Below, in pieces: positions 2,497 to 37,998 of a DNA stretch of 64,000 nt (positions are counted from its first letter, which is position 1; every line of letters starts with the position of its first letter). Made by a program: the position numbers and the translations under genes. The DNA is taken from the NCBI RefSeq assembly GCF_964194025.1, contig NC_134477.1, forward strand, positions 3,224,001 through 3,288,000, read 5' to 3'. The notes below the pieces were generated by a model. The model had not been told where the DNA came from, did not search any database, and was given only the letters and a program-made list of their open reading frames with translations. The DNA comes from Convolutriloba macropyga (lineage: Eukaryota).

Positions 2497-4427
2497 TGGC
2501 TTCAGCAGAACACAAGATTTGTCAGTTGAAGTCAGGTTGGCTTTGAAAGAACTAAGAAAACTATTTTCACAAGGAAATCCAGTCTGCCTAACAATCTCAC
2601 TTGAGCAGTAAAATACTGTGTCTTGCTAACGTGAAACTTGTAATTTATCTAGCCATCGATTTGGTCTTGAAAGTTTGAGTAACTTGAGAGAAAGGAAAAT
2701 AAAGAACCTCTGATAGCCGAAAATTAGGGTGACAAAAATTCCTCTTCTTTGACCAGACGAACGACTTATAATCAGTTCTTTGAAAGTAATAGGCGGTGAA
2801 AGATAGATTTTCAGTTCACAGACTTGAGTTTTCCAAACCAAAAATCTAGATGCTACGTCATCTCTATGGCTCCGGCCCCAGTAACTAACGAAGGACCTCT
2901 GTTTTGACCAACAATTCAAGTCCGCTTACGGCAAACGACGGGTTCTCCTCTGTGAATTGTGTTCTATTCTGAAACCGAATGTACCCCCGTTTAGAAATAT
3001 AAACAGTGAGCAACCTATAGGGATACAAATTTTGGTTTTGAATAGCCCCAAACTGAATTATTGAGTTGTTAACCAAAACTCAGAAAAATTGTTTATTTAG
3101 TTGGAACTTACTGAGTAATTCCAGCAACTGATTTTATTATTCAGCAAAGTTGAACGATTAGTTATTTGGACTAAAAAACAACGTTTAATGCATTAATGCA
3201 ACGGTAATTTACAGAAAAGCGGTTATGAAGTTACAAAAGCGAACTGCACAACTTACTAACCCGACAGCTTGTAAACCGATAATAACGAACTGGGCGGTAT
3301 AAAACTTTCCTTGTGACTGATAGGAAAGCAGCCGTTACATTTGGTCCGCCGAACCGGACAGTGGAATACAAACCGCTGTCTGATCTCGAACAAAACAAAA
3401 GGCCAACGAGACAATTCGAGTTGCTTAGTCAAACGACGTTGAGGTGCCAACGTTGTCGAAAACAAAACCACGGGACAAAAAAACGTCAAACTGCGGCGTC
3501 AAACTAAACAAATTGTGACTCGGTCACGTAGTCACAGCAACCCTGAGAGACAAATCAATCACTGCGCAAAGCAGATTGAGCTGAAGGAGAAAGAAGGATA
3601 CGAACTGATAAAAAAAAGAATCGGCTTAGCAAAGTTAAAACAGTATATAACCAAATTTTGCAATTCAATAACAGCCTAGAGAAGCTACTTGACAAGAGAG
3701 GTGATATCTTTAACAATTTGGAATTCTACCGACGACACAAAATCCAACAACGCGAATTTTTCATCAACTTAGAAGCGGATTGGTTGCCATATATCCACGG
3801 CCAGACAAGCATGGCGGATCAGCAGAATCAGACCCTTCTTTAAAGCAGGGCTGCAGAGCTAAACAATAAGATTCCAAGATCTATGGGAGGAACGTCCCAA
3901 AATGCTGTTAAGAATCAACAAAAGGAAAACCAGGACAACGAGTCCAAAGCGTCTTCCGATAAAAGGGCAAAGCAAGCAGAGAAGCTTGCAGCTCTAGAAA
4001 AAAAAAATTAACACCAAAATGCGTCTGAAAAAAATTGAATATGTAATGAAGCAGAAGGAGCTGGAGATGGAACTGCACCGTTTGGCAGAAGATGGTGCGC
4101 TCAAACTGCAATACGAAAAAGAAACCCTTGATCCCAAGATTCTGGTTCTGATGATGGTGCCGCGCCTAGTATAAGAAATCGATCGCCTTTCAATTGGAAA
4201 AATCCGAAGAGCAAGGACGTCTTTGGCTGGCTCGACCAATCAGATAATTTGCAAACTTCAAAGACTGTATTTTTGATCATACAAAGAACGGTCACAAAAA
4301 CTATCGAGTCAGTTTTGATCGAGAAAGCCTACTCAAATCCAGATCCCCAAACGGCGACCGTTTCAAACTCAACCGTTTAACCGACCGGTCTGAGTGCAAT
4401 GTACTAAGCAGTAGTCACCTACCAAAG

Positions 4428-7400
4428 TTGAAGTTAAATTCTTTTGACGGCAACCAACTCGAGTGGCCGGAATGGTCGAACATGTTTGTAGCAACCGTTC
4501 ATAACCGTGAAATACCTAGCTCAGAGAAAATGAGCCACTTGAAAACATTGTTAACTGGCATAGCAAGAGCGGCTATAGCAAGTGTGGGCTACTCCGGAGA
4601 TCTATATGGTGAAGCTTGGGCTTTATTGGAACGGAGGTTTGGCCGACCTTACCTAATTGTTGAAGCACAACTCAATACTTTGCGAAATCAACAGGCGATC
4701 CGAATGCATGATTAAAAAGCTTTAGTCAGTTATTCAACAACCATCAGAAACGTAGTCAGTGTTCTGAAGCACTACAAATATGAAGGCAACTTGCAATCTA
4801 GTGCAACACTGCAAATCGCGATTGAAAAATTGCGCCCTAATCTGAAGAAATGGTGGTTCTATGTAGATGAAACCAATGAGCTCCGACCAGATCTCTGTCT
4901 CATAGAGAACTGGCTATCAAGAATGTCATTCGTTTACGAAGGCATGTCGCAGCCCACAGGGGAACGTAAGGAGGATCATCGACGAAATGCGAACAAAACC
5001 AAGCAGTTCTCTAAATCATCGAATTTATGTGCGAGTTCAAAAGTAAGGGAAGCGCAGGCAACGATTAGCGATCACTGCTCATTACCCGATGAAACGCACA
5101 AAATTTGGAACTGTCTTTTGTTCAAGAACATGAACGTGAATGATCGTTATGCAGCTGTAAGGAAGCAACGCCTGTGTTACGGATGTCTGGGAAAAGGACA
5201 TGCGATCAAAGATTGTAAAGTCAACGCTTGTGGTATGAATGGATATACCAAAAAGCACAACCGATTGCTACACTCAGAAAACCAAATGGACGAGGGCAAT
5301 CACGCAGTCAACGTAAGCGCAGCAACAATCAGTCAAAATAACGAAGTTACGAGTTTTCTTCAGATAGTTCCAGTCTCATTTCAGAGTGGCAGCAACAGGT
5401 TAAACACATATGCTTTCCTCGATAGTGGATCAACGGTATCATTCATCGACCGAAGCGTTAATGAGAAGTTGCGAGCCAATGGCACCGATGTTTCACTCAA
5501 CATAGCTGACATACACGGAACGAAAGATTTGAAGACAGAAATGATGTCCATAAAAAAAGGGACCGCATTCAAAAGTACATTCGATAGAAGCGTTTGTACA
5601 CCCGTAAATTTCATTGGGAACCACAAACTACGACTACAACAAACTGAGGCAAAGTTTCAACCACTTGAACGTTCTCCCAAACAAAACGTTCAACTTGATG
5701 GACGTCGGCGTCATTCTCGGTCAAGATGCTTAAGAGCTACAGAGACTATTGGACTACAGGGTAGGAACGCGAAGTGATGCTTTCGGCGTTTTAACAGAAT
5801 TAGGATGGGTGGTCAGTGGACCCATGACGGACAAGAGAAGACAAAATGTTTGTCATTTTGCCTTCACAGAAGATGTGCAAGTGGCTGAGAATATCCAAAA
5901 ATGGTGGGACATAGAAACCTATGGTTCCAAAATTGACGTCGTCATTCAGTCAAAGAAGGAACTGCATGCACAGAAGATGCTAGAGAGTACGACAAAGTTC
6001 ACAGGTGAGCGGCACAAAGTGGGAATGCTCTGGAGTGAACCCGAGCCCAACCTGCCGAACAATTACAGCTCAGCCTTGGGTCAGCTTCACTCACTGGAGC
6101 GAAGATTCCAAATGGACCCGAACCTTTAAAGTTTGTATCAACAGTCGATAGATACAGACGTAGAGAAGGGATTCGTAAAAATATTGGACGAGTCTGATGT
6201 GAAAGGACACTTCGGGAAAGATTGGTATTTGCCACACCATCCAGTGCAAAACCCGAACAAGCCTGGCAAAGTGAGACGTGTTTGCAATGCTGCATCGAAG
6301 TACACTGGTGTATGCCTAAACGACAAGCTACTAGCAGGGCCTGACCTACTGCATGATTTGATTGGAACTATTTTCAGATTTCCTGAAAGACCAGTAGCCC
6401 TAACAGCAGATATTGAATCGATGTTTCTACAAGTGCAAGTTCCCCAGCAGGATAAAAAATGCATGAGGTTTCTATGGCGCCAAAAAACTAATGAACCTGT
6501 TCAAATATATGAAATTCAGCGTCACGTGTTTGGAGCTAAGAGTTCTCCAACTTGCGCAAACTATGCTCTCAAACGAGTGGGACTCGATAACGAAGAAGTG
6601 TATCCAATTGCATCAAAAGCAATAAAAAACAACTTTTACATGGACGATTTCATCAAATCAGTAGAAACCCCTGAAGAGGCAATTGAAGTCTTCATTCAAT
6701 TGCGACCTCTTCTTTCGCAGCATGACTTTCAACTTACAAAGTGGATAAGCAACAGCGATGAGGTCTGCAAAGCAATCCCAATCGACTTGAAATCAATCAG
6801 CAACACGAAGCAAGTCGAAGTGGAATTCAATACAGAGGGATCCTCAGTGCTTGGACTACAATGGACTGTTCCTGATGATAGTGTTCAAGTCTGCTGAGGT
6901 ACGAACAGGGATGTTGAAGCCCCTATAACCCGGAGGAAGATTTTGTCACTGGTATCTTCTGTATTTGACCCAATCGGATTGTTTGCTCCGTTCAGCGTTA
7001 CCATGAGACAACTTCTCAAAGGCATCTGGACTAAAAATGGTCAACATTGGGACAACCAAGTGGAGCCTGGTGAAGTAGCAGAGTTCTTGAGGTGGAAGGA
7101 ACAACTTCTAAATGTAGCTGAAACAAGCATTGATAGAAGATACTTCAACACAGAGAGGGATAAAACCGAACTTCATGTGTTTGCTGATGCACTTGAAGAC
7201 ACAATGTGTGCAGTGGCCTATCTAAGATCCCAACCAAAGGAATGCTCAGCCGATTTAGCATTTTTAATTGGAAAATGCAGAGTGGCACCGATGAGGCATC
7301 TTTCAAGACCACGATTGAATGGCAGTGAGATTGAAAGAACAGATAGTCAAGGAACAAGAAATGAAGATAAATAGTTGCAGATTTTAGTGAGAATCATCTA

Positions 7401-9198
7401 CGGTATTGCAGTGGACACACAGTTTCCATCATAAGCAGCAAGTGTTTGTGGCCTATCAAGTGGCTGAGATACTAGATACAACTGATGTTTCACAGTGGAA
7501 GCATGTGAGCGGTATCAACAACCCAGCGGACATTGGCACCAGAGCAATCAACATTGAGGAACTCAAAAGAAGTGAGTGGATCAAAAGGCCGGCCTGGTTA
7601 AGCAACCAGAATGTGAATGGCCAGAGCAAGTGAACCTAATCGTTGCCTCAGATGAAGAGAACATACCTTCATCAGTCTTCATGACACAAGCTGATAAAAA
7701 GAAAGCGGTTATTCAGTGGGAACGATTCAGCAATTTTAACAGAATAGTGAATACAATGGCATACGTACGGCGGGCATTCAGCAAATACAAACCAGCAACA
7801 CTGTTAGTCAGTATTGAAGAAATAGAAAAAGCAAAAGCAAGCATCCTCAAGTTATTACAGCGAGAACAGTTTGGTGAAGAGATGAAGTCTCCGAAAATTG
7901 AACAAGAAATCCCAAAAAGCAGGAAAACTCTACAATTCTCACCTTACCTGGATGAGGAAGGTCTTATTCGTGCCAAAAGCAGAGTAGGTAAAAGTCAATT
8001 GGGCTTTAACATAAACATCCAATATTGTTACATTGGAAATATCATGCAATTGAATTGTTGTTGCGAAACGAGCACAAGAACAATCAACACGAATGCACAG
8101 AGCATGTCAGAAACATTGTTCAGCAGAAGATGTGGATCCTAGGCATACGAAACGTTTTACAATCAATCAAGAACAAGTGTGTTACCTGCAGAAAAAGCAG
8201 AGCACAAACGATAACACCAGTAATGGCAGATCTACACGAAGAGCGTTTAGATGCGTCAACCGCCTTTACAAATATTGGAGTTGACCACTTTGGCCCTTTC
8301 ACTGTGAAGATTGGTCGAAGAAAAGAAAAGCGATGGTGTTGTCTGTTCACATGTCTAACTGTGAGAGCGGTGCACATAGAAGTGGTACACAAATTAGACA
8401 CGGATAGCTGTCTCAATGCAATCTTGCGATTTATTGCACGAACAGGCAAACCCAGCACGATCATCAGTGACAACGTAACAGACTTTGTTGGAGGTGAACG
8501 AGAGTTTGCAGATTACGTTGCTGCATGGAACGAAGAACGGATTGAGAAACATCTAATTCAGCAAGAAATTAGATGGAAGTTCAACCCACCCGCAGCACCC
8601 CACTTTGGAGGGGTATGGGAACGGTTGGTCAGAAGTTGCAAGAAGGCAATGTATGAGGAACAGATCAGTCACAGAGGACGTTCTTTCAACAACGATGTGT
8701 ATTGTGGAGCAAACATTGAATGCAAGACCGTTGACTCCCGTAAGTTCAGATGTCAATGACCTAGAAGCACTGACCCCCAATCACTTCCTGCTGGGCAACA
8801 CGAATGTTTGCTTACCATACCTACCATGCGCAGAAGAATTTGTCGATCATCGAAAGCTCTTTAGACAAACTCAAGCCTATGCAAATCTCATTTGGGACAG
8901 ATTTCGAAAAGAGTAAATACCAACGTTGAACAACCGGCAAAAGTGGCGATCTACAGCAAACCTTACAGAAGGAGATATCGTTTGGTTGGTCGAAGACAGT
9001 GACAAGCGAGGATATAATAATCTGGGTCCGGTCACGGAGACCATCGAAGGGTCCGACGGAGTGATTCGATCAGCGAAAGTTCGAACGGACTACGGAGTTT
9101 ACAACAGACCAGTGGTGAAGCTCGCTCCTGTGTCACCAAACAGTAAAGATGTTTTCGTGATGGAAAACAGGGCCGGCGATGTGAAGGCCGAGCATTAA
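4428..9198 (+). pseudogene. Fragmented BEL/Pao gag-pol
   Basis: ORF pieces: LNSFDGNQLEWPEW (gag), CYGCLGKGHAIKDC, AFLDSGS, WYLPHHPV...NFYMDDF, NNPADIGTR, GVDHFGP...IISDN...GGVWERLV; many stops and frameshifts. Confidence 0.95.
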
Positions 9199-9577
9199 TG
9201 AATTCCTCAAACTTTCATTTCATTAAAACAATTTTTATGTCGGCATATTTTGTTTCTAAATTGCTTACATTTGTAAACGTGTAAAAAGAGCCCCCAAAAG
9301 TGCGAACAGGCTGACCGGGTTAAAATTTTAACAAAACGAGGTCACTAAAACTGCTGTATACCAAAATTGCGTTTTACACCTGTTAACAACAAAGTGTTAG
9401 TTTGACTTTTCCAAAAAATCACAGCTGCTGTCACTTATACAGAAGTGAAGTGAAAGACTAAGACTGAAATTCTGCATAGATCTGATTCCACGCACTTCAA
9501 AGCTTAATAAAAGTAAGTGTGTGTGCGTGTCGCAGATTGTTGTGAACAATCAGAAAATTAAGCCTGAGCTTTGTTGT
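9180..9577 (+). repeat. 3' LTR of the BEL/Pao element, 3'-truncated
   Basis: Preceded by purine-rich GGAAAACAGGGCCGGCGA; homology to the 5' LTR stops after GAGCTTTGTTGT, so no terminal CA or TSD is recoverable. Confidence 0.85.
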
Positions 9578-20977: not shown

Positions 20978-23900
20978 TGATACCCAAAAAGGTATAAACG
21001 AGCTATACTATTATCACAACCTCTACTAAAATGCCATTTATACATTATCGTATCTGATGAGACTAGTTCTTCTATATTTTCATCTTTTACTTTTTCCCGC
21101 ATGTTTGTAAACTATTAGTATTTCGCATCTATTTACACCTCACTAAAAACTGATATCAATAATTTCGTTTCTTCCACTGAACTTCAGCTGCTGTTAAAAC
21201 TTCTTTAAATCACGTCAATTCTGAAATTCTGGAGTTGTCTCTCAGATCCGGAACAGACTGAGGGTAAGTGGTTCCATGCGCGAATACGGAACTCATTGAT
21301 TAAATTTCAGTTGAAATAAATACAAATGCAAAAAAATATCACATGGCGCGGTCAGGAGGCAAGGATGCTGGAAATTCTCTTTTGGGGATCTAGTCCGTCT
21401 GGGAAGAGCATCATTGGACCCTACTTTAAGGTTGAAACACTGGCGTTCACCTCTCAAACTCGCAATTTTCGCCCGTGAAGGCATCGTTTTAGAACTCTCC
21501 TAGGCTATACCCCCGACGAAAGTGACAGAAAGGACCCACCACATTGGAAATGAACGAGCAAAGACACCATGGAAGAACAAATGCCGAAAGACAGAAGCCA
21601 TGGGCATTCTCTGTGGTGATAAACCCTCAAAGGTTTGTTTCCAAACGGCCTCAACTCTGATGTATTTCAGTCTGGGAAGGCCGTCAACTCAAAGCACCCA
21701 GGAACCCCCCACATGGATGAAATATCAACAAACGATTTGCGAGACCTGTTGAATTGAACGTTTCTCAAAGCACGAAACAAAACCTTCGACAGGTACTTAC
21801 TTCTAGCGCACAAACATTTCCAAAGAAACCTATAGAAAAACTACATTTGAAAGTATCGTGGATAATTTCTAATTCATCGGCATTGAATTCGAAAAAAATT
21901 CTAATACAGCGCGTTCGCTTTTTAATGACTACCCATCTCCCAGTATTAATTCTGTTGCACAAAAAAAACAACATCTTGACACTCCAGTGAACTTAGCTGC
22001 AGAACACATCGCAGAAACAAATGACCGCGGAAAAAATTGTACTAACTGCTGCATTGCTAATCACTTTGCAAAAATTTGTCGCAAATTTGGAAACAACTCA
22101 ACACAGAACGTTGAACCACAACCTAGAGTCTATAACGCGTTGACGGGAATGAACATTAGGTAGATAAAGAAGAAATTCAAATCACCTCAAATAGTGAACC
22201 CGATTTAGAATTGACTCTTTTTTCAGACGATAATTGTGTTGCAGCATTTAAATGGAAAATCCTTCAATCGCATTAGAACCAATAAATCCACCGATTAAAA
22301 TAAGCTAAACAGAAAAAACTGTGAAGGTGGACCCAGGCGTTGTCTGTACCGTCGTGAATGAAATTTTGACAAGCGAGGTGGTTGCGTATGACATATGATC
22401 GAGATGAATTGATGAACCGAATGCTTATCAAATGAGAATTTTTTCGACGAATCAATGCAAAATGTGAGCATATGAAAAGTTTTTGAAATCGAAAATTGGG
22501 TCTCGACGTACAGACGTAACAGACGTACACCGCTCACAGTTGGAAATAGATCTGTTTCTCCAACTTGGCTTTCATCTTCAACAAGAAAAATTTCAAAATA
22601 CAGTCAATCAGCCAGATCAAGAACTCAGTCCAAATAAACAAAAAATGTCTGATTTTCCGAGTCTGGTCTTTAGATTCGGTCAGTCCAAGTCACAGACTGT
22701 TTGTTCCAGATTTTATTGCAAAAGAGTCCTAACAACCAGACGGGATGACGAGTTAATATTATCTTACAAAAAAGTTAACACAGAAATAAAACAACTCACA
22801 GCTCAAAGTCATTTTGAAAAATTCTAACAATGTTTGAATTAAAATTTTACCTCCCCAATGGTTATCTTAAAAAATCAAGATAGATCTATTGGACTCGTAA
22901 ACTTAAATTATTTCTGTCGCAAAAACAAAAGCCTAAACTCGATGGCCCAGTCGATTCCATTTCACATTTTTTACAACACTAGATTTGTAGTGTGCACACA
23001 GTCAAAGTAATCAAAACCGTAAATAGCACGCCATTGTAATATCCTTGTCATTTGTGGAGAATCAACTGTTTTTTGTAGATTTAAAACGGGTATTTACGAA
23101 CTAACAGATATGCCCAGAATACTTCAAGGAGCAATGGATTACTCGTTTTTTGGCCTTAAAGACACCTATTGTTTGCTTGACGATATCATAATTGTTAGCA
23201 ACGGTAGTAAAAGAGGTCAGTTTAGAGACATTTCTTCTTGTTTAAAAAAGTTAGACAAAGATAATCTTAGAATAAATCATGGGAAATATAATATTGCAAA
23301 ATCAAACGTCAATTGGTTTGTCATTTTGTCAATTCACGTCAATTCTCACAAAATATACCACAGGCATATTCCCAGTTGAATCAAAACAGCAGCAATCTTT
23401 GAAATTATTGCAACGGCTACTCGGAAACAGTTACAATCTTGTTGGAAGCGTAGATCATCTCAGTAAATTCATCTCGAGCTCCCCAAAGTTATCTCATATT
23501 CTCCATCCGTTAATTGAGAAAAAGCAAAATTTTTGGAATGGCAATCATAAGTCACAGTTTGATTATAATGGAAAATTGCAAACAGAACGAAAAACAGTTG
23601 TTTTAATGCTGACTTACAAGCGCGCATCAAATGCGACGCATCTACATCAAGCTTAGGTGCAGTCTTTGAGCAGAAGAACCGTAAATGGTGGAAAAAAACA
23701 GCATTTGCCTCTCAATTTTTAAATTGCAATGAATATTACTATAGCATAAAAGAATTGGAATTGTTCAGTGCTCCCTCTACTCGGTATATTATCTGTTTGG
23801 AAAAAAATTCACAGATTTAGCAGATCATTGTGCAGATTTGTCAATTATGAAGAGTCCTCATTTTAACAATTTTTGAAACTGTAGATAAACAGGATAGATT

Positions 23901-30208: not shown

Positions 30209-32048
30209 TTCTTTTTATTTGTATGTTTTTGATTGAGTTCTTTGTTTCCTCTTGTTTTTCGTACGAAGGGTTCCTGATAATCTAATGGTTTTGTTGCATT
30301 GTAATCCTTCCGTTCTTTTCTTCCTCATCAATTGCGATTTTTCTATCTCGTTTTCTCGTAAATTCTCATTTTTTGCTTTTCACTCCCTTGGCTTTCTCAC
30401 AGACTCTTGTTTTTTTCTGTTCTCCTTGTCAGCTTTCAAACTTCTGTTCTTCTCTGTCTTTAGGGTTTTTTTGTTTTTTTAAATCTATTTGCTCTCCGAC
30501 TCATTACATATTTCTGCTGCCATCGATCTCTCTTTCTCTCTCTTTATGACTCGTTCATGAAACCTTTCTTTGATATATTCGGCTCGCTTCATTTTTGTTG
30601 GTGTGTCCAAAGTAGTTTTGCAAATTTCATTGAAACGATCCTAAGTACACCAGTTATCACGAATAAATCTTCAATGAAAATAACAACTGTTAAAGTTTTA
30701 AGATAAGTTGCATTCAGATAGCTTTTACGACGGACCTGCTAGTTTTTAATTAAATAAGCTGCAATAACAGCCATAATCTATTTTTCGGGGGAAAAGCACT
30801 TTTGAAATGAGAAAAGTGTTCTATTAAATAGCTGCTAATAAAATGGCCGTTTGAATTTGGTACTGTAACTGAAAAAAATTATCAATAGATCATTCACAAT
30901 TTTCTTGATTCAGTCTTAACTAGTGGTTGATTTTTTTTCAAATGTGATTTCAAAACTTATATGTGCATATTTCTTTCCCATCAGCTTTAGGTTGCAAAAA
31001 ACTTCTTGTTTGGCGAATTGTTGTGCAAATTTGGAATCAATAAATGATGTTATTATTTTCACAAGTGCTCTTTAATCAAATTCTTTTAATCGTATTTTTG
31101 TTCGTTTTTGAATTTTGGTTTCAAGTAACTTTATTATACATCAAGAATATATATTCTTTGTTTTGCTATTTTTGTTTAAAACACGTAAGTGGAGTCCTAA
31201 TTTTGTTCGTTAAAAAATTTCATCTGCATAAATTAAGAACTCCAATTATTCTGAGGCAGCATAAATTTTCATTATGAAGACTTTTTCTTTATTTTTAGTT
31301 TGGTATATGTGAGCATTTGTATTGCTTTACATTTTTTAGAGAGCTGAAATGGGAACTTAGTTTTTGAGAGCTTATTTTTTCCATATCAGCTTTGTTTGAG
31401 AGACCTGATATAAACTGTTTTTTGTCTTGATGAAAACGTCTTTGAGTGTACGAATTCTAACCAATCGGACAATTTTTTAGATTAGTTTTCCCGAACGATG
31501 AAAAATCAATGAGTTTAATATTTGGCTCACCTAAAAACAATTGTCGAGATTGTGCGTACATCTTCTTCTATTTTGATAAAAAAGAAAAATTGAAAGTGAA
31601 AATTTCTAACCAATATTACCACTTGGAGTAGCCCCGTCATTTTGTCTATTTAGAGCAAACTGAATCTGTTTCGTGAGTAAAATTCCTTTTTTAAAAAAAA
31701 TTACTTAACGAAGGAACAGACGAAACTGTTCCAGACGAATTATTCACAAACAAAACGGTCTCAAAAAACAAATAATCCCACATAAAATCGTCCACATATC
31801 AAATGCACCAGCATCTATCAAAAAACATAAAAGTTCATATCATTAAACTAATATTAAATTGATTACAACACATTTTTAGTCAAATTATATATTAAAACGC
31901 AATTTTTTATACGGGTTCTTAATTACGTGATGTATTGGTTCTTAATTACAAAAAATTGTCCTTAACGTCAAACACGTTCCTGCTTCGAAATTCATGATGC
32001 GTGCTTTAACGGGTACTGAAACCTTTTTAGGGCCAGATTTTGTTTCAG

Positions 32049-32606
32049 GGTACTACCCTCCCATGTCGACTTCAAGTGATTCCTATGCATAGTTTCTCCT
32101 TCGAAAGGGTATCTGAAAACACAATTACTATGGAGTTTGCCGCTGGAAACGCCCAATGTTCCGTTTGTCACTACAGAACTAGTAATATCAATCTATCAAA
32201 CACAATTATCGGTCGTCATCAATTTTTGTCATTAGTACAGACAGCGAACTTGAAAGAAGCTATTCCCTTCGGAATATTTTTCAAGCAAACTGCTATTTAT
32301 ATAGCAGCTTATCTGCGAAAAATGTCTTTAAAAATTGCGTCGAAAAATGGCCAAACTTTACACAAATCGCCAGAATTGATAGTTTTGAAACTTCGCGGAA
32401 ACGATAAAAATTGCGCCTTATACCATGTAAACGATGTTGCATTATTGAAAAAGATTGAACAGTTTGGTGTAAACAAAAACAAACAAATTGTTTACGTAAT
32501 GACAGACTTGCTACGAGATAACCAATATACACGAACTTTGCGGAATTATTTCAAAGACCATTACATGTTTGAGTCGTACGATTTGCCAATGATTTTTGAG
32601 GGATCT
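32049..32606 (+). CDS. O-fucosyltransferase-like gene, exon 3 (3' end 32600 or 32606)
   Basis: TTTTGTTTCAG acceptor in phase 0; IVLKLRGND and IVYVMTD match the HLRRGD and FIATD motifs of GDP-fucose-binding GT-B transferases. Confidence 0.7.
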
Positions 32607-33089
32607 GTTTCCTTTTTTTTGTCGTCGAAATTTTCCCGACGATACCAGCCATAGTTTAGCAGTACTGAACTATAGCAGAACAATTAAAATATACCTATGA
32701 ATATCAAACGTTTTACGCAGATGCGCTGGATCAGAGTAAAAACAGACTGTTTCATAGTCTGCTAATAGTAAAAGAAGACTATGATCATATTAAAATCAGG
32801 ATGAAATCAGAGTAATTTTTAATTCTGAAAATAGACTGATCACAGTATATTATGAATCAGAGTAAATACAGACTGAACTTTTCTATGATTCAGAATGGAT
32901 TACTACGTTTGGTACCCTTAAAATCCTGCCCTTAAACTTTTAGTTTTTTCCCTGTTTTACGCTACTAGAATTTACTTAGCTCGCTTTCTTGTCACATTTG
33001 CCTTGTTGACATGCACAATTTTCTAAGCAAAAGTAGGAGAATTGATTTTGATGCGTTTTCTAATGATTTTAAATAAACTTTATTTCAAA

Positions 33090-33456
33090 TGTACTAGCCG
33101 GTTCGGTGATATTTTGTTTTAACTCTTTTGGATTATCCTTAGACTAAGATTCTTATCTTATTGTTTCTAAGTTCCAATTCTTGAGTGAAAATGTTTGTGT
33201 TTAATAAGATGAATTTACTTGAAGATAAATAAATAGCAAAAGTGGAAAGAATATTTTAAGTGTACACAGTAACTTGTGCGCGGAGGTTTATCTGAGGGAA
33301 TGATTGAAAAAGGCTGTAGAGAAGTGCGTACGTACAACACTAAAAAGTGGGAGTAAAAAAGATTACTCATGTTACTCATACAAACAGCAAACAGCACTGT
33401 ATTAAATATGGAAATAGTGGAAATAGTGTGGGAGGAAATAGGAGAGAAATGTTACA
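33090..33456 (-). repeat. 3' LTR (367 bp); ATTAAA poly(A)-signal candidate at 33205-33200
   Basis: Identical by eye to 45142-45508 (offset 12052); the ORF track gives the same 60-aa ORF in both. Confidence 0.97.
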
Positions 33457-33470
33457 ACTCACCCCCCTTC
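33457..33470 (-). other. Polypurine tract
   Basis: GAAGGGGGGTGAGT on the minus strand abuts the 3' LTR. Confidence 0.9.
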
Positions 33471-33647
33471 GAAGGAAAATATAAAAACTACAAACTTACC
33501 AAAGGTATGTCATGCATAATAATTCACGGGCTAAATAGTCCATATCAAAATAATATGCTGAAATGCATAATAAACGTAGAATCAGGAATATACGAACAAG
33601 TACAAGTAATACCAGATACGAACAGTGTTACTAGAGTTAATGACAAG

Positions 33648-35411
33648 TTATTTTTGCTGGCTCTGCTTCTTCGCTTTCTGGTTTATCGGCCAGGGCAATC
33701 TAGCATATTTATTTTCCCAGTTATAATCTTTTTCGAAACCATCACCACTTGGGTACCATATAGTAGATAAACGCTCTTTAACAGTTCCCTTGTAGACGTT
33801 GAAGATTGAATTTTCAAAATAAATTTCGGTGTCGATCGCGGTTGCCAAATCAAGTAATTCTGCCAAAGATGTTTGCAATTCCTTGTATTTTTCGTCGTCC
33901 AGATTTTGAATTAGTTTAATTGCCTCAGCACGTTTTACATCGATGTCAACGCTTATTCGCTGAATATTTTTCAGATGTTGGCCAATTTTACGATTTTCTT
34001 CTGCCTTCACGTTAGCATTTCGATACAGTTGTTGATATTTTAGCTGCTGACTGTCAGCTTTCTCTAAGGCTGCTTTTAGTTCAATAATCTCGTGGTAACA
34101 CTGAAGATACTCGGCCTCAAAACTTGGTTTTGTTTTAACATTGTTTAATTGGGCTTTTAGAGACTCATTTTCACGTTTAAGTTTTACCAGCTCAAGATTC
34201 TTTTCTTGCAATTGTTTGTCCGCAAGCACACAGTTTTGGATGGATAAGTCATACCTTGATTCCGTTTCGTTCCAGTTATGCTGTGCTCGATCGAGGGCTT
34301 TCTGTAAGTTGTCTATTTTCTTTTGCATAATATCCTCATTATTTTGTTGCGTTTGCAATTCAATGGACGATGTTGGAAGATTTGCAGGGAAAGCAGGTGA
34401 GCTAGAGGTACAAGGCTGCGGATTTCGTGGAGGTTTTGACTTTACGTAAGTTGAGCTAGAAGTACAAGGCTGCGGATTTCGTGGAGGTGTTGATTTTACG
34501 TTTGGCCCGAGCCATTCCGAGTTGTACCCATTTGGGAAGGCGGTTAGATACTGGTAAGGTACGTTTAGATAAATTTTGAGCGAGTTGAAATGCACGGTGT
34601 AGGTTTGTGTTGATACGTTTCTCATCTTGATCCGACAAAAATTGAATTCAGGCAGTAGTTGAAGGTTTCCATTCTCCAGTTCAAATTTCCCAATCGCATT
34701 TGATGGTAAAATATGGCGCTTCGTATTTAACGTTTTGTTCTCGTACTCTCGATCAGCAGTCTTTTGCCAGATATTGGCCTCTGGTTTCAAGGAATATTGC
34801 AGGAACTCAACAAACTGAGGATTTATGAAGTTTAGATGTTGTTCTCGTTCTTTTTGTATCTCGAGTCTCGATTTTTTGTTGGGAAATTGTCCTGCCTCTT
34901 TTGGGAGGTTGTCGAAAATTTTTCTTTTCTTCGACTTAGTTTCTTTGGCTTTTGCTGTCCACTTGTTAAAGTTGGAAACAGGAGTCTCCAATATTGGAGC
35001 TCTATTTATTTTAGCAGGAACCGTGTCCTGACTGGTTACTTGACCGGGATTGGCAGGTACCTTGTCCTGATTTGTTACTGGGTCAGAGTGATTTGCTGAA
35101 TATGCTGGTGCTACAGGATCCATGTCCTGGGGCTGCGTTCCAATGGGAGGGTGTGAAGGATCCATGTCCTTCGAGAGAGTGTTAAAGAAATAGTGCACTG
35201 GGGAAGTCAAGTTTTTATTTGCATCAGTGCTTGATACGTGATCTTCGGGGGCTTTAGAGGTGCTATCAGACTCGCAAGTGGCAATAACGAGGTTGCCGGG
35301 AATTGAATTTATGTCAGGGATATCAACGCTAAATTCATCTGGAGTGACAATGTCAGGAGCTGGAAAGAAGTCGTCAATGTCGAAGGTCGTATTGACGTTT
35401 AGAGATGACAT
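33648..35411 (-). CDS. ORF3: orphan accessory protein, 587 aa from the first ATG
   Basis: Intact ORF inside the LTRs; acidic Pro-rich N-terminus, basic KAKETKSKKRK, 18-aa tandem repeat (54 bp, 34399-34500), long heptad-rich coiled-coil region and aromatic C-terminal motif (WYPSGDG...RLPWP). Confidence 0.85.
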   Translation of the reverse strand: MSSLNVNTTFDIDDFFPAPDIVTPDEFSVDIPDINSIPGNLVIATCESDSTSKAPEDHVSSTDANKNLTSPVHYFFNTLSKDMDPSHPPIGTQPQDMDPVAPAYSANHSDPVTNQDKVPANPGQVTSQDTVPAKINRAPILETPVSNFNKWTAKAKETKSKKRKIFDNLPKEAGQFPNKKSRLEIQKEREQHLNFINPQFVEFLQYSLKPEANIWQKTADREYENKTLNTKRHILPSNAIGKFELENGNLQLLPEFNFCRIKMRNVSTQTYTVHFNSLKIYLNVPYQYLTAFPNGYNSEWLGPNVKSTPPRNPQPCTSSSTYVKSKPPRNPQPCTSSSPAFPANLPTSSIELQTQQNNEDIMQKKIDNLQKALDRAQHNWNETESRYDLSIQNCVLADKQLQEKNLELVKLKRENESLKAQLNNVKTKPSFEAEYLQCYHEIIELKAALEKADSQQLKYQQLYRNANVKAEENRKIGQHLKNIQRISVDIDVKRAEAIKLIQNLDDEKYKELQTSLAELLDLATAIDTEIYFENSIFNVYKGTVKERLSTIWYPSGDGFEKDYNWENKYARLPWPINQKAKKQSQQK

Positions 35412-35598
35412 GGTAATGTTGATGAAGGAACAGTAAATAATCTTATTAAACACAAACTCATTAATTGGAACTTTTCCAAAGTTTCATTTTAGTTCATACT
35501 AAGTACTAACAGTATTCGTATACCATTTTAGAATATTATCCTATAAATATTATAATAGTTTTACATGCACTACAAATTTTGTTTTGGAGTTTTAAAAT

Positions 35599-37857
35599 CT
35601 AAGGAGGTGCTAAAGGCGCACTTGCACCCTTTTGATTTTGAATGGTAGGATAAATTTTTATCTCCATTTCTCCCGCATACTTCTCCTGGTGTTCATTGGA
35701 GTTTAGCGGTTTGTTTACAGGTATATAACCTGTTTTGTTTTCGTCATCGTTCGCACCATGGCGATTGAAGATGGAAGTGAAAATGGACAGAACGAACAAA
35801 TTGAAAACTGCTCCTAGCAGGATTTTGCTGAAGCCAACTGTTGCTCCCGTTAGTCGGTGTATTTCAAAAGCTTTAAGGAAAACGACAACAATTTCCGTTA
35901 TAAGTTTGACGAAAAGGAAAACTGCAAACCAAATACCAAGTTTTTCTAGGTAGTAAGCAACAGATCCAAAGGCTGACTTGAACTGCTGCGTGAAGTAGTT
36001 AGGTGAAAGGAATGAGTCAAAATACATTCTATTATTCAAACTGAGCGCCTGGTCTAGCTTTCCGGATTCCATGATTCGGACATTGTCTCCATTTGTTAGT
36101 ATTCGTCTAGTTAACTTTTTAAGAATGGTCGCAGAAGCAGAATTATGGATGACATTGTCCCAAAAATCTTTTATTTGGGCAGGTGAGTAGAGACCTGACC
36201 GTTGTAGGTCGTATTCTTCTGGTTCAGTAATGTGGCCAATCTCCGTTGGCTCAAAAATTAAAGGTGCATTTACTGGTTCCGGTGCCGGTGAGAGCTTATA
36301 CCAAGAAGTAGCTACGTCAAGATCTAATTGGAACATATTCCCGTATGTTCCTTGACATGGGATTTCGTTTGCGAAGGGGAAGGTTTGACGTGTAATTGGG
36401 TCAATAAAGTGAGTTTTCCCTTCGTATTCAATTGGAATGCGGTCATAGCATCTATCAAGGATTTTCAGAGGTGAAATAACCTTTGGGCATTGATACAGCC
36501 AAGCAACGCTACCATCAGTGTCAAGAAACATGGAACGATCTCCAGTGAGCATGTATCCAGCTAAACGAGTATTCTGAAGAGCTAACATAAAAATAATTAA
36601 GAATTGTGTCCTCTCCAATTCGCAATCATTGCGTAGAAGAGTAAGCTCAGAATGGCGAAGCCGCTTAGCGTTATAAAACACTAAAAAGTTTAATTTGGCC
36701 TGAAGATGCAGCTCATAGTCAATTTTATCGGCACCAAATTGCTGCCATGGAGTTTCACCATATCGTGTGCCGTTCGGATGCCATCTATAATTTAAACTTG
36801 AATACTCGAGATTCTGTTGTGAATCAATTGAAAGTCTGTAGGAGTTGGATGAAAAACTCGAAGGTTTTCTGGGGTGCCCAGAATCCAAATTGAAACCGTT
36901 GTCATATGCGACGAATAGGTTAGCGAAGTTTGTTCTGTAAAGTTTTTCTGGCTTGCCACAAACTTGTTTCTTCTCGTTAAACACCCTGATTCTGATATCA
37001 AACTTGATAGGATTTGAGCTATCATTGTGCTCGGTGCTATCACTAACTAAGAAGTATATAGGGCTTTGAAATTTTGGTGTGTGCTTCAACATTCTAGCAG
37101 GTTGGGAGAACAATTGAGTGACCAGACAGTTTTCTGGTGCGTCCCAAACATAAGCATGTGGGTCTAATGTTGTAGTGAAGCAACCCTCTTCGTTTAGGGT
37201 ACATGGGAGTTTCATGCTGAATGGATTCCTGACTTCTAGGGTTTGGAAGTCTACGTACAAAGTGACATTTTGCATAAAGGTTACGATGCTTAGGTGCTTT
37301 ACCTCACCAGAGTCATCGCATTCATCTTTGTTTTCGCGTTTTGTTCCGGCATTTCCCCATGACTGGGTTTCGACATCATAGTCGACACTAGCTGTGAATG
37401 TTTTACCCCAGTAGGAGATATTGAGTTCTTTTGTTGCTATTGCTTGTCTACAATCATCTGCAGACAACACATAGTCGGTGGTAATTGATGATTGTTTATG
37501 AACAATGGATGAATGCGAGAACATGCCGCAGTGAAACCTGAGTGGTTGGATCTTCACTCTACACATTGTAGCATCTACTGAGGTGCGGAATGAACGTTGA
37601 TACACATGAACGTAAGCATCAGCTACTTTGACCTGTTCAGGTGAAATTGTGCAAGGAGCGACTTGATTAAGGGAGTACATGCGATTTTTGCGCATTCGTT
37701 TGCAATCATAGTGAACAACTTTTAAAGACTCGGACACATTGTCCTTTTCGTCTTGCTGTTGACTTTGCGTTTTAGTTAAAGTAATGAGTGTAGAAAACAG
37801 AGTAAGTAAGAAAGTAATAGATAAGAAAAGGAATTGTGTTTTTAGAGAACAACTCAT
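35599..37857 (-). CDS. env: Envelope glycoprotein, 752 aa, chuvirus-G/gB-like (class III fusogen-like)
   Basis: Signal peptide; Cys-rich ectodomain with HYDC, CGMFSHSS, GSVAWLYQC, CYDRIPI...FIDPITR and GLYS motifs; N-glycosylation sequons; C-terminal hydrophobic segments; located right after pol. Confidence 0.85.
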   Translation of the reverse strand: MSCSLKTQFLFLSITFLLTLFSTLITLTKTQSQQQDEKDNVSESLKVVHYDCKRMRKNRMYSLNQVAPCTISPEQVKVADAYVHVYQRSFRTSVDATMCRVKIQPLRFHCGMFSHSSIVHKQSSITTDYVLSADDCRQAIATKELNISYWGKTFTASVDYDVETQSWGNAGTKRENKDECDDSGEVKHLSIVTFMQNVTLYVDFQTLEVRNPFSMKLPCTLNEEGCFTTTLDPHAYVWDAPENCLVTQLFSQPARMLKHTPKFQSPIYFLVSDSTEHNDSSNPIKFDIRIRVFNEKKQVCGKPEKLYRTNFANLFVAYDNGFNLDSGHPRKPSSFSSNSYRLSIDSQQNLEYSSLNYRWHPNGTRYGETPWQQFGADKIDYELHLQAKLNFLVFYNAKRLRHSELTLLRNDCELERTQFLIIFMLALQNTRLAGYMLTGDRSMFLDTDGSVAWLYQCPKVISPLKILDRCYDRIPIEYEGKTHFIDPITRQTFPFANEIPCQGTYGNMFQLDLDVATSWYKLSPAPEPVNAPLIFEPTEIGHITEPEEYDLQRSGLYSPAQIKDFWDNVIHNSASATILKKLTRRILTNGDNVRIMESGKLDQALSLNNRMYFDSFLSPNYFTQQFKSAFGSVAYYLEKLGIWFAVFLFVKLITEIVVVFLKAFEIHRLTGATVGFSKILLGAVFNLFVLSIFTSIFNRHGANDDENKTGYIPVNKPLNSNEHQEKYAGEMEIKIYPTIQNQKGASAPLAPP

Positions 37858-37878
37858 TTTGGCAAGATGAAATGTGGG

Positions 37879-37994
37879 ACTGAGGAAGAAGTTTTTGATC
37901 GTCTGTATTTATACTCCAAATGACGTCATCGAGTGAGACGGGACCTCATTGGTCCAGTTTTTTTCTGCACTCATTGGAGTTTTTTTTTTTTTTT
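37879..37994 (-). promoter_or_regulatory. Putative internal Pol II promoter for env
   Basis: Minus strand: A15, CCAATGAG twice (CCAAT at 37977-37973 and 37952-37948), ATGACGTCAT (37920-37929), TATAAATA (37913-37906), TCAGT Inr with +1 at 37881 (TATA at -32); env ATG 24 nt downstream. Confidence 0.75.
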
Positions 37995-37998
37995 GTGT

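Follow-up and report, generated by a model that had tools for sequence, protein, structure and literature searches.

The locus considered here raises the question of how an LTR retrotransposon expresses an envelope gene that lies behind a complete gag-pol frame. Within a window of 64,000 nucleotides from Convolutriloba macropyga, the whole stretch of DNA that was analysed, an intact 12.4-kb Ty3/gypsy LTR retrotransposon occupies positions 33090-45508 on the minus strand. A spacer of 141 bp (37858-37998, minus strand) separates its pol and env genes, bounded on the sense strand by the pol stop codon (38001-37999) and the env ATG (37857). Judged from its sequence, this spacer is probably a compact TATA-box Pol II promoter that drives env independently of the LTR, and it is predicted to hold both the internal promoter and the env 5′ leader. 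The mechanism is already known from the Oikopleura elements Tor3b and Tor4b; what is probably new is the lineage.

The element and its neighbourhood

The two LTRs of the element (5′ LTR, 45142-45508; 3′ LTR, 33090-33456; both minus strand) are 367 bp each, have TG...CA ends, are 100% identical and have a 4-bp target duplication on either side. The 3′ LTR holds candidate poly(A) signals at 33219 and 33205 (minus strand), and no TATA-like word was found in the 5′ LTR. A single gag-pol ORF of 2050 aa (37999-44151, minus strand) encodes domains in the order gag-PR-RT-RH-IN (Pfam). The best PDB matches of the RT-RNase H region are 4ol8 and Ty3-G Gag-Pol, with E about 1e-33, and Pr125Pol entries match the element RT more weakly (E about 1e-22). 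The TG...CA ends, a duplication within 4-6 bp, the PR-RT-RH-IN order and the Ty3-like RT place the element in the Ty3/gypsy group (Metaviridae).

Searches of the window by tblastn and blastn returned no second copy of the element. Clusters at 99-100% identity contain 17 env, 20 pol and 9 ORF3 member sequences, and these near-identical members are consistent with recent activity of the family. Because the element is intact, its LTRs are identical and its proteins have such numbers of near-identical cluster members, env needs some route of expression.

The 5′ region of the element carries several further features. The primer-binding site (45139-45122, minus strand) begins with TGG, two bases past the LTR, and had no match in the seven supplementary files searched. 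Just after it, at 45072-44992 (minus strand), lies the strongest local fold of the element (z about -6.5). The 5′ leader (44652-44241, minus strand) contains a two-part motif in four spaced copies, each forming a hairpin interrupted by a small internal loop; in the upper stems the copies differ by compensating changes, and three of the four are fully paired. These hairpins are a candidate packaging or export signal. They have no Rfam match, and taken over its full 534 nt the leader region does not exceed its shuffles in stability. A tandem pair of TGAGTAA words in the LTR (45433-45414, minus strand) and one TGACTCA word in the leader at 44311 are presumably bZIP-type sites.

Other, broken retroelements are located at about 4200-9200, 22400-23800 and 49100-51400, all on the plus strand. 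They comprise one integrase-bearing element, which we take to be BEL/Pao-like, and two RT/RNase H relics. A 207-codon open frame without a Pfam match (32031-32654, plus strand) adjoins the 3′ LTR. A Pfam scan of 101 of the 109 listed stop-free stretches found retroelement domains and two weak matches that do not seem exon-like.

Env and ORF3

The env gene (35599-37857, minus strand) encodes a protein of 752 aa with an N-terminal hydrophobic segment, C-terminal membrane segments and a match to the Monjiviricetes_fusion family (PF24664; Pfam E 5e-47). A sequence search of the PDB gave no match for env. Its predicted model has a mean pLDDT of 63 and a pTM of 0.33, and the best Foldseek matches of this model are herpesvirus gB proteins, with an E-value of 5e-13 and low TM-scores. 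By family and by the local fold of the model, env is classified as a class III, gB-like fusogen. With intact gag, pol and env genes and a gB-like fusogen recognised through PF24664, Atlas neighbours and Foldseek, the element belongs to the gB-type env Ty3/gypsy elements.

The preliminary description had credited env with a signal peptide of its own. A hydrophobic N-terminal segment is indeed seen, a feature that does not separate a promoter from splicing. Among related proteins, 59 env matches reach the N-terminus and in 51 of these the anchor is preceded by 20 or more residues; a hydrophobic leader is found in 41 of the 51. A short motif, E[ED]GE[ILV], occurs within the first 15 residues of 7 of the 120 env matches (P0016, P0039, P0040, P0044, P0066, P0078 and P0087), which corresponds to seven of the eight matches with a long N-terminal extension, and beyond residue 60 in none of the 120. 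We take it to resemble the ARS2-binding EEGEI motif. Of env matches of at least 690 aa, 7/33 are on contigs shorter than 5 kb, too short to include gag-pol. These short contigs could fit env-only transcripts, which either a promoter or splicing would produce.

Downstream of env lies ORF3 (33648-35411, minus strand; 587 aa), a frame without a Pfam family that would be carried by the same predicted subgenomic RNA as env. Sequence searches with ORF3 returned only its own cluster of nine members, and its Atlas scores do not exceed 0.84. Within the gene, 53 nt are tandemly duplicated at 34395-34501. In the 187-bp spacer between env and ORF3, which holds five ATGs, no TATA-initiator pair, no pyrimidine-rich acceptor and no comparable cassette was found; the promoter model therefore leaves the expression of ORF3 unexplained.

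Promoter motifs in the pol-env spacer

Every motif that had been proposed for the spacer was located on the minus strand in the order and positions described, with textbook spacing: two CCAAT boxes 25 bp apart, a perfect 10-bp CRE, a TATA box at -32 and a TCAGT initiator. Positions are counted from the A at 37881, the predicted start, as +1. The most distal feature is an A15 tract (37980-37994, minus strand; -113 to -99), the sole run of at least ten A residues on the sense strand of the element, although the length of such a homopolymer may be imprecise. It is possibly a nucleosome-disfavouring element. The distal CCAATGAG CCAAT box (37970-37977, minus strand; -96) spans an upstream ATG (37974). 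Its proximal CCAATGAG counterpart (37945-37952, minus strand; -71) includes the ATG at 37949 and fits the extended NF-Y consensus RRCCAATSR fully. The CRE ATGACGTCAT, a palindrome (37920-37929; -48 to -39), overlaps a third upstream ATG at 37929. Only two TGACGTCA sites exist in the window, one of them within this CRE.

The core begins with the TATA box TATAAATA (37906-37913, minus strand), whose first T is at -32 and which also contains an in-frame TAA closing the env frame 5′ of its ATG. A pyrimidine run leads into the predicted initiator (37879-37892, minus strand; TCAGT at 37883-37879), which is equally a candidate 3′ splice site. The ATG in the env start context GCCAAAATG follows the initiator A by 24 nt, at +25, and the predicted 24-nt env leader is free of ATGs. 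A TATAWAWR word about 30 nt before an initiator, with CRE and CCAAT motifs at their usual proximal positions, corresponds to a TATA-box promoter by general consensus definitions and usual positions, which are not host-specific.

The rarity of this arrangement was assessed against 20000 dinucleotide shuffles and 892 non-overlapping 141-nt control windows. The full ordered motif set was absent from both (0/20000 and 0/892). A TATAWAWR word and an initiator spaced by 28-34 nt occurred in 4/20000 shuffles and 1/892 control windows, and the 8-bp CRE in 69/20000 and 2/892; two CCAAT words alone are unremarkable (58/892 control windows). Across the window there are 81 TATAWAWR words, three with an initiator at the right spacing, and the spacer's pair is among these three. 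Under looser rules, an Inr-like word follows at 26-35 nt for 16 of the window's 165 TATA-like words; three of these pairs, that of the spacer among them, are also preceded by bZIP-type and CCAAT words. Of the 16 pairs, that of the spacer alone leads by its next ATG into a long ORF (752 aa versus at most 54 aa). The motif set was picked post hoc, after the sequence had been seen, which makes these figures optimistic; the margin is nonetheless wide. A chance arrangement devoid of function is very improbable: up to three sites in the window satisfy the most permissive definition of motifs selected after the fact, but the strict set appears in neither control and the cassette directly precedes an intact 752-codon ORF.

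Alternative routes to env

Translation of env from the full-length RNA faces several obstacles. The pol and env genes share a reading frame with two in-frame TAA stops between them, the pol stop and the TAA inside the TATA box. Stop read-through would need two suppressions and was rejected. The upstream ATGs at 37974, 37949 and 37929 open ORFs of 21, 7 and 6 codons, and all three are embedded in CCAAT or CRE motifs and precede the predicted start. Leaky scanning was likewise rejected, as these ATGs would intercept ribosomes. With read-through and scanning blocked by the TAAs and the upstream ATGs, env needs a new 5′ end. A route at the RNA level would avoid this requirement if a possible stem-loop over the three upstream ATGs (37914-37980, minus strand), for which there is modest support, hid them while ribosomes entered or shunted on the full-length RNA. 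The hand-picked 71 nt of this structure fold at -22.5 kcal/mol (z -3.4), and by energy the stem-loop is third of 1235 windows of the element; part of the promoter cassette thus also folds as a stem-loop, a point against the promoter reading. Over the whole spacer, however, z is only -1.6, the rank by z is 53/1235, and Rfam gave no match across 33000-45600. Shunting past a 2050-codon ORF is unlikely in itself, and the RNA-level route is highly improbable.

Splicing would supply a new 5′ end without an internal promoter. It had been argued that the env ATG lacks a good pyrimidine-AG acceptor in front of it, but the initiator word itself provides a pyrimidine tract followed by YAG, in the form of a CAG (AG at 37881-37880) after nine pyrimidines in ten positions. 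By pyrimidine count this site is among the five best of the 308 YAG sites in the element, and the argument falls. A transcript from the 5′ LTR could be spliced in cis from a donor such as GTGAG at 45128 to this CAG, in which case the upstream motifs would be an enhancer or incidental. The leader contains donor-like words, and splicing is the usual route to env, including in Tor3a (PMC4402516). The exon would begin at 37879, 22 nt before the ATG, bypassing all three upstream ATGs and yielding nearly the same mRNA as the predicted start two bases away. A branch point is expected about 18-40 nt upstream of an acceptor, with no intervening AG. On the env side, YTRAY words are absent from 117 nt of sequence; the A of the nearest candidate, CTCAC, is 53 nt upstream and two AGs intervene, AGs lie 23 and 34 nt upstream, and the preceding 100 nt are A-rich (35 A, 23 T). 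Acceptors of this grade are common by chance, being found in 210/892 control windows against 1/892 for the TATA-Inr pair, so the env-side acceptor weighs little against that pair. Cis-splicing also leaves a TATA box at exactly -32 unexplained and is unlikely. The double nature of the initiator, which is also a strong pyrimidine-CAG acceptor, still counts against the promoter, as does the acceptor-like appearance of the same word before the gag ATG. Promoter and acceptor could both be used.

In this second pyrimidine-CCTCAGT word (44184-44196, minus strand), 35 nt upstream of the gag ATG, the A is at 44186; a third, looser version sits in the LTR. The gag-side site lies in a T-rich stretch (38 T in 100 nt), with 24 YTRAY words in 534 nt (44720-44184). 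Two YTRAY words fall within 35 nt of it, the sequence is AG-free for 51 nt, and there is no TATA at -30. Its sequence context suggests an acceptor that would remove seven short upstream ORFs, and the T-rich stretch suggests a gag-pol mRNA that is spliced, trans-spliced or separately started. The word common to the regions upstream of the gag and env ATGs would be accounted for if the host added a capped spliced leader (SL) at both CAGs, thereby resolving a polycistronic LTR transcript. Such trans-splicing is known from several invertebrate groups and affects 30.2% of genes in one acoel (10.1101/2022.08.27.505549), and the gag leader, with its seven short upstream ORFs and T-rich, YTRAY-dense stretch, would suit it. 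Around env, however, the context is A-rich and without branch-point words, ORF3 is not preceded by a pyrimidine-rich acceptor, and the promoter motifs are left without explanation. Trans-splicing at env is quite improbable.

A proposed mechanism for env expression

If the spacer is a promoter, NF-Y and a CREB/ATF-type factor would recruit TFIID to the TATA/Inr core. Transcription would start near 37881 and yield a subgenomic transcript of about 4.7 kb, capped and ending in the 3′ LTR, with env translated from its first AUG. Having neither the primer-binding site nor the 5′ leader, this RNA would be excluded from copying and, probably, from packaging. The supply of env would thus be uncoupled from the genomic RNA, as in Oikopleura Tor4b. 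The promoter may in addition be responsive to cAMP or to stress signals. The CREB/ATF response and the switch between intracellular and enveloped modes put forward in the preliminary description would follow from a single motif match.

The env promoter and the gag-side site may be combined into one joint reading, which we regard as doubtful. An unnamed gB-env Ty3/gypsy clade (22 RT rows) would, in this rather speculative scheme, run separate cassettes, with a signal-responsive CRE/NF-Y/TATA promoter gating env. The gag-side pyrimidine-CCTCAGT word would, just as tentatively, give rise to a translation-only gag-pol RNA that contains neither the primer-binding site nor any of the four leader hairpins. 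Were this scheme correct, infectivity, protein supply and genome packaging would be governed by different RNAs, and host cAMP or stress signalling would toggle the element between retrotransposon and virus.

Phylogenetic position and relatives

A quick pol tree was built from 82 of the 88 pol matches, six having been dropped for short alignment; long-branch warnings concern positions outside the clade of the element, and the tree label ‘caulimo’ is a guess from Pfam domains. In this tree the clade that includes the element has 22 rows, a support of 100, a long stem and no named member. No named Tor protein is present among the 88 pol matches. Scans of genome contigs for related DNA confirmed none of nine candidate stretches with the env alignment and none of 32 with the pol region. 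The pol and env ORFs of the relatives do not run through the spacer; as they stop short of it, the ends of these proteins yield no reading of the spacer.

Comparison with known systems

An internal promoter in another retroelement is that of foamy viruses, which is situated close to the 3′ terminus of env and directs the expression of tas and bet (PMC12789967). The element resembles foamy viruses in having a second promoter, here a predicted one, inside the provirus. Its spacer, in contrast, lies upstream of env and would drive env itself, and its RT is closer to Ty3. A foamy-type internal promoter was thus discarded, given the position of the spacer upstream of env.

Other LTR retrotransposons share parts of the architecture. 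Anakin, a BEL/Pao element with a chuvirus glycoprotein (PMC7642597), is described in a paper that mentions neither ‘promoter’ nor ‘splic’. The element is like Anakin in being an LTR retrotransposon with a chuvirus-type glycoprotein, as its env matches the Monjiviricetes fusion family. Membership in Anakin was rejected, since its pol is Ty3/gypsy rather than BEL/Pao. Troyka elements have CG...CG ends and a 3-bp duplication (PMC12440569), and membership was likewise rejected for an element with TG...CA ends and a 4-bp duplication. The gB-env Ty3/gypsy ‘errantiviruses’ in the broad sense (PMC13524379) share with the element the intact gag-pol-env arrangement, the gB-like fusogen and the occurrence of several near-identical copies. 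That study catalogues 1512 elements, and its main text mentions neither ‘promoter’, ‘splic’ nor acoels (PMC13524379).

The experimental precedent comes from Tor. For five Tor3b/4b cases, Henriet et al. (2015; PMC4402516) report capped, unspliced env 5′ ends that lack LTR sequence, located inside pol in Tor3b and in the pol-env space in Tor4b. Constructs without the 5′ LTR still gave Env expression, and pol and env expression patterns differed for two Tor elements (PMC4402516). These authors term Tor unique for the transcription of env from an internal promoter, and the main text of their paper does not mention a TATA box or an initiator (PMC4402516). A literature search, in which subscription papers were largely out of reach and which is no proof of absence, found no further internal env promoter in a Ty3/gypsy element. 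As Penv of Tor3b/Tor4b is an experimental precedent, the promoter reading becomes more plausible but less novel. The claim of LTR-independent env transcription stands with this precedent as the best reading, while the missing acceptor that had been called on to support it does not.

Like Tor4b, the element is a Ty3/gypsy gag-pol-env retrotransposon with a non-coding pol-env space, here of 141 bp. As demonstrated for Tor3b/4b (PMC4402516), its env RNA is predicted to lack LTR sequence and to start upstream of env. In contrast to Tor3b/4b, its env has no match to F-x-G, N-[LV]-G or the R-x-K/R-R furin site. The appendicularian elements in the table of Chary and Hayashi carry F-type env (6/6; PMC13524379), whereas env here is gB-like, and an extra ORF follows env in this element, unlike in Tor. 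The absence of the Tor3b/4b env patterns and the different env type led to the rejection of Tor identity. The element is closest in function to Penv of Tor4b without being a Tor element. Because the Tor env features are absent, it is probably an independent case of an internal env promoter, in an unnamed clade, and the promoter remains a prediction from sequence. If true, it would be a second case, with a separate pol clade and an unrelated fusogen class, and the internal-promoter route would have had more than one origin. Such a case would also point to a way in which a captured envelope gene is expressed without having to be accommodated by genomic-RNA splicing. The promoter can be read to the base, which gives a single-nucleotide prediction of the start and a motif screen applicable to the 1512 catalogued elements.
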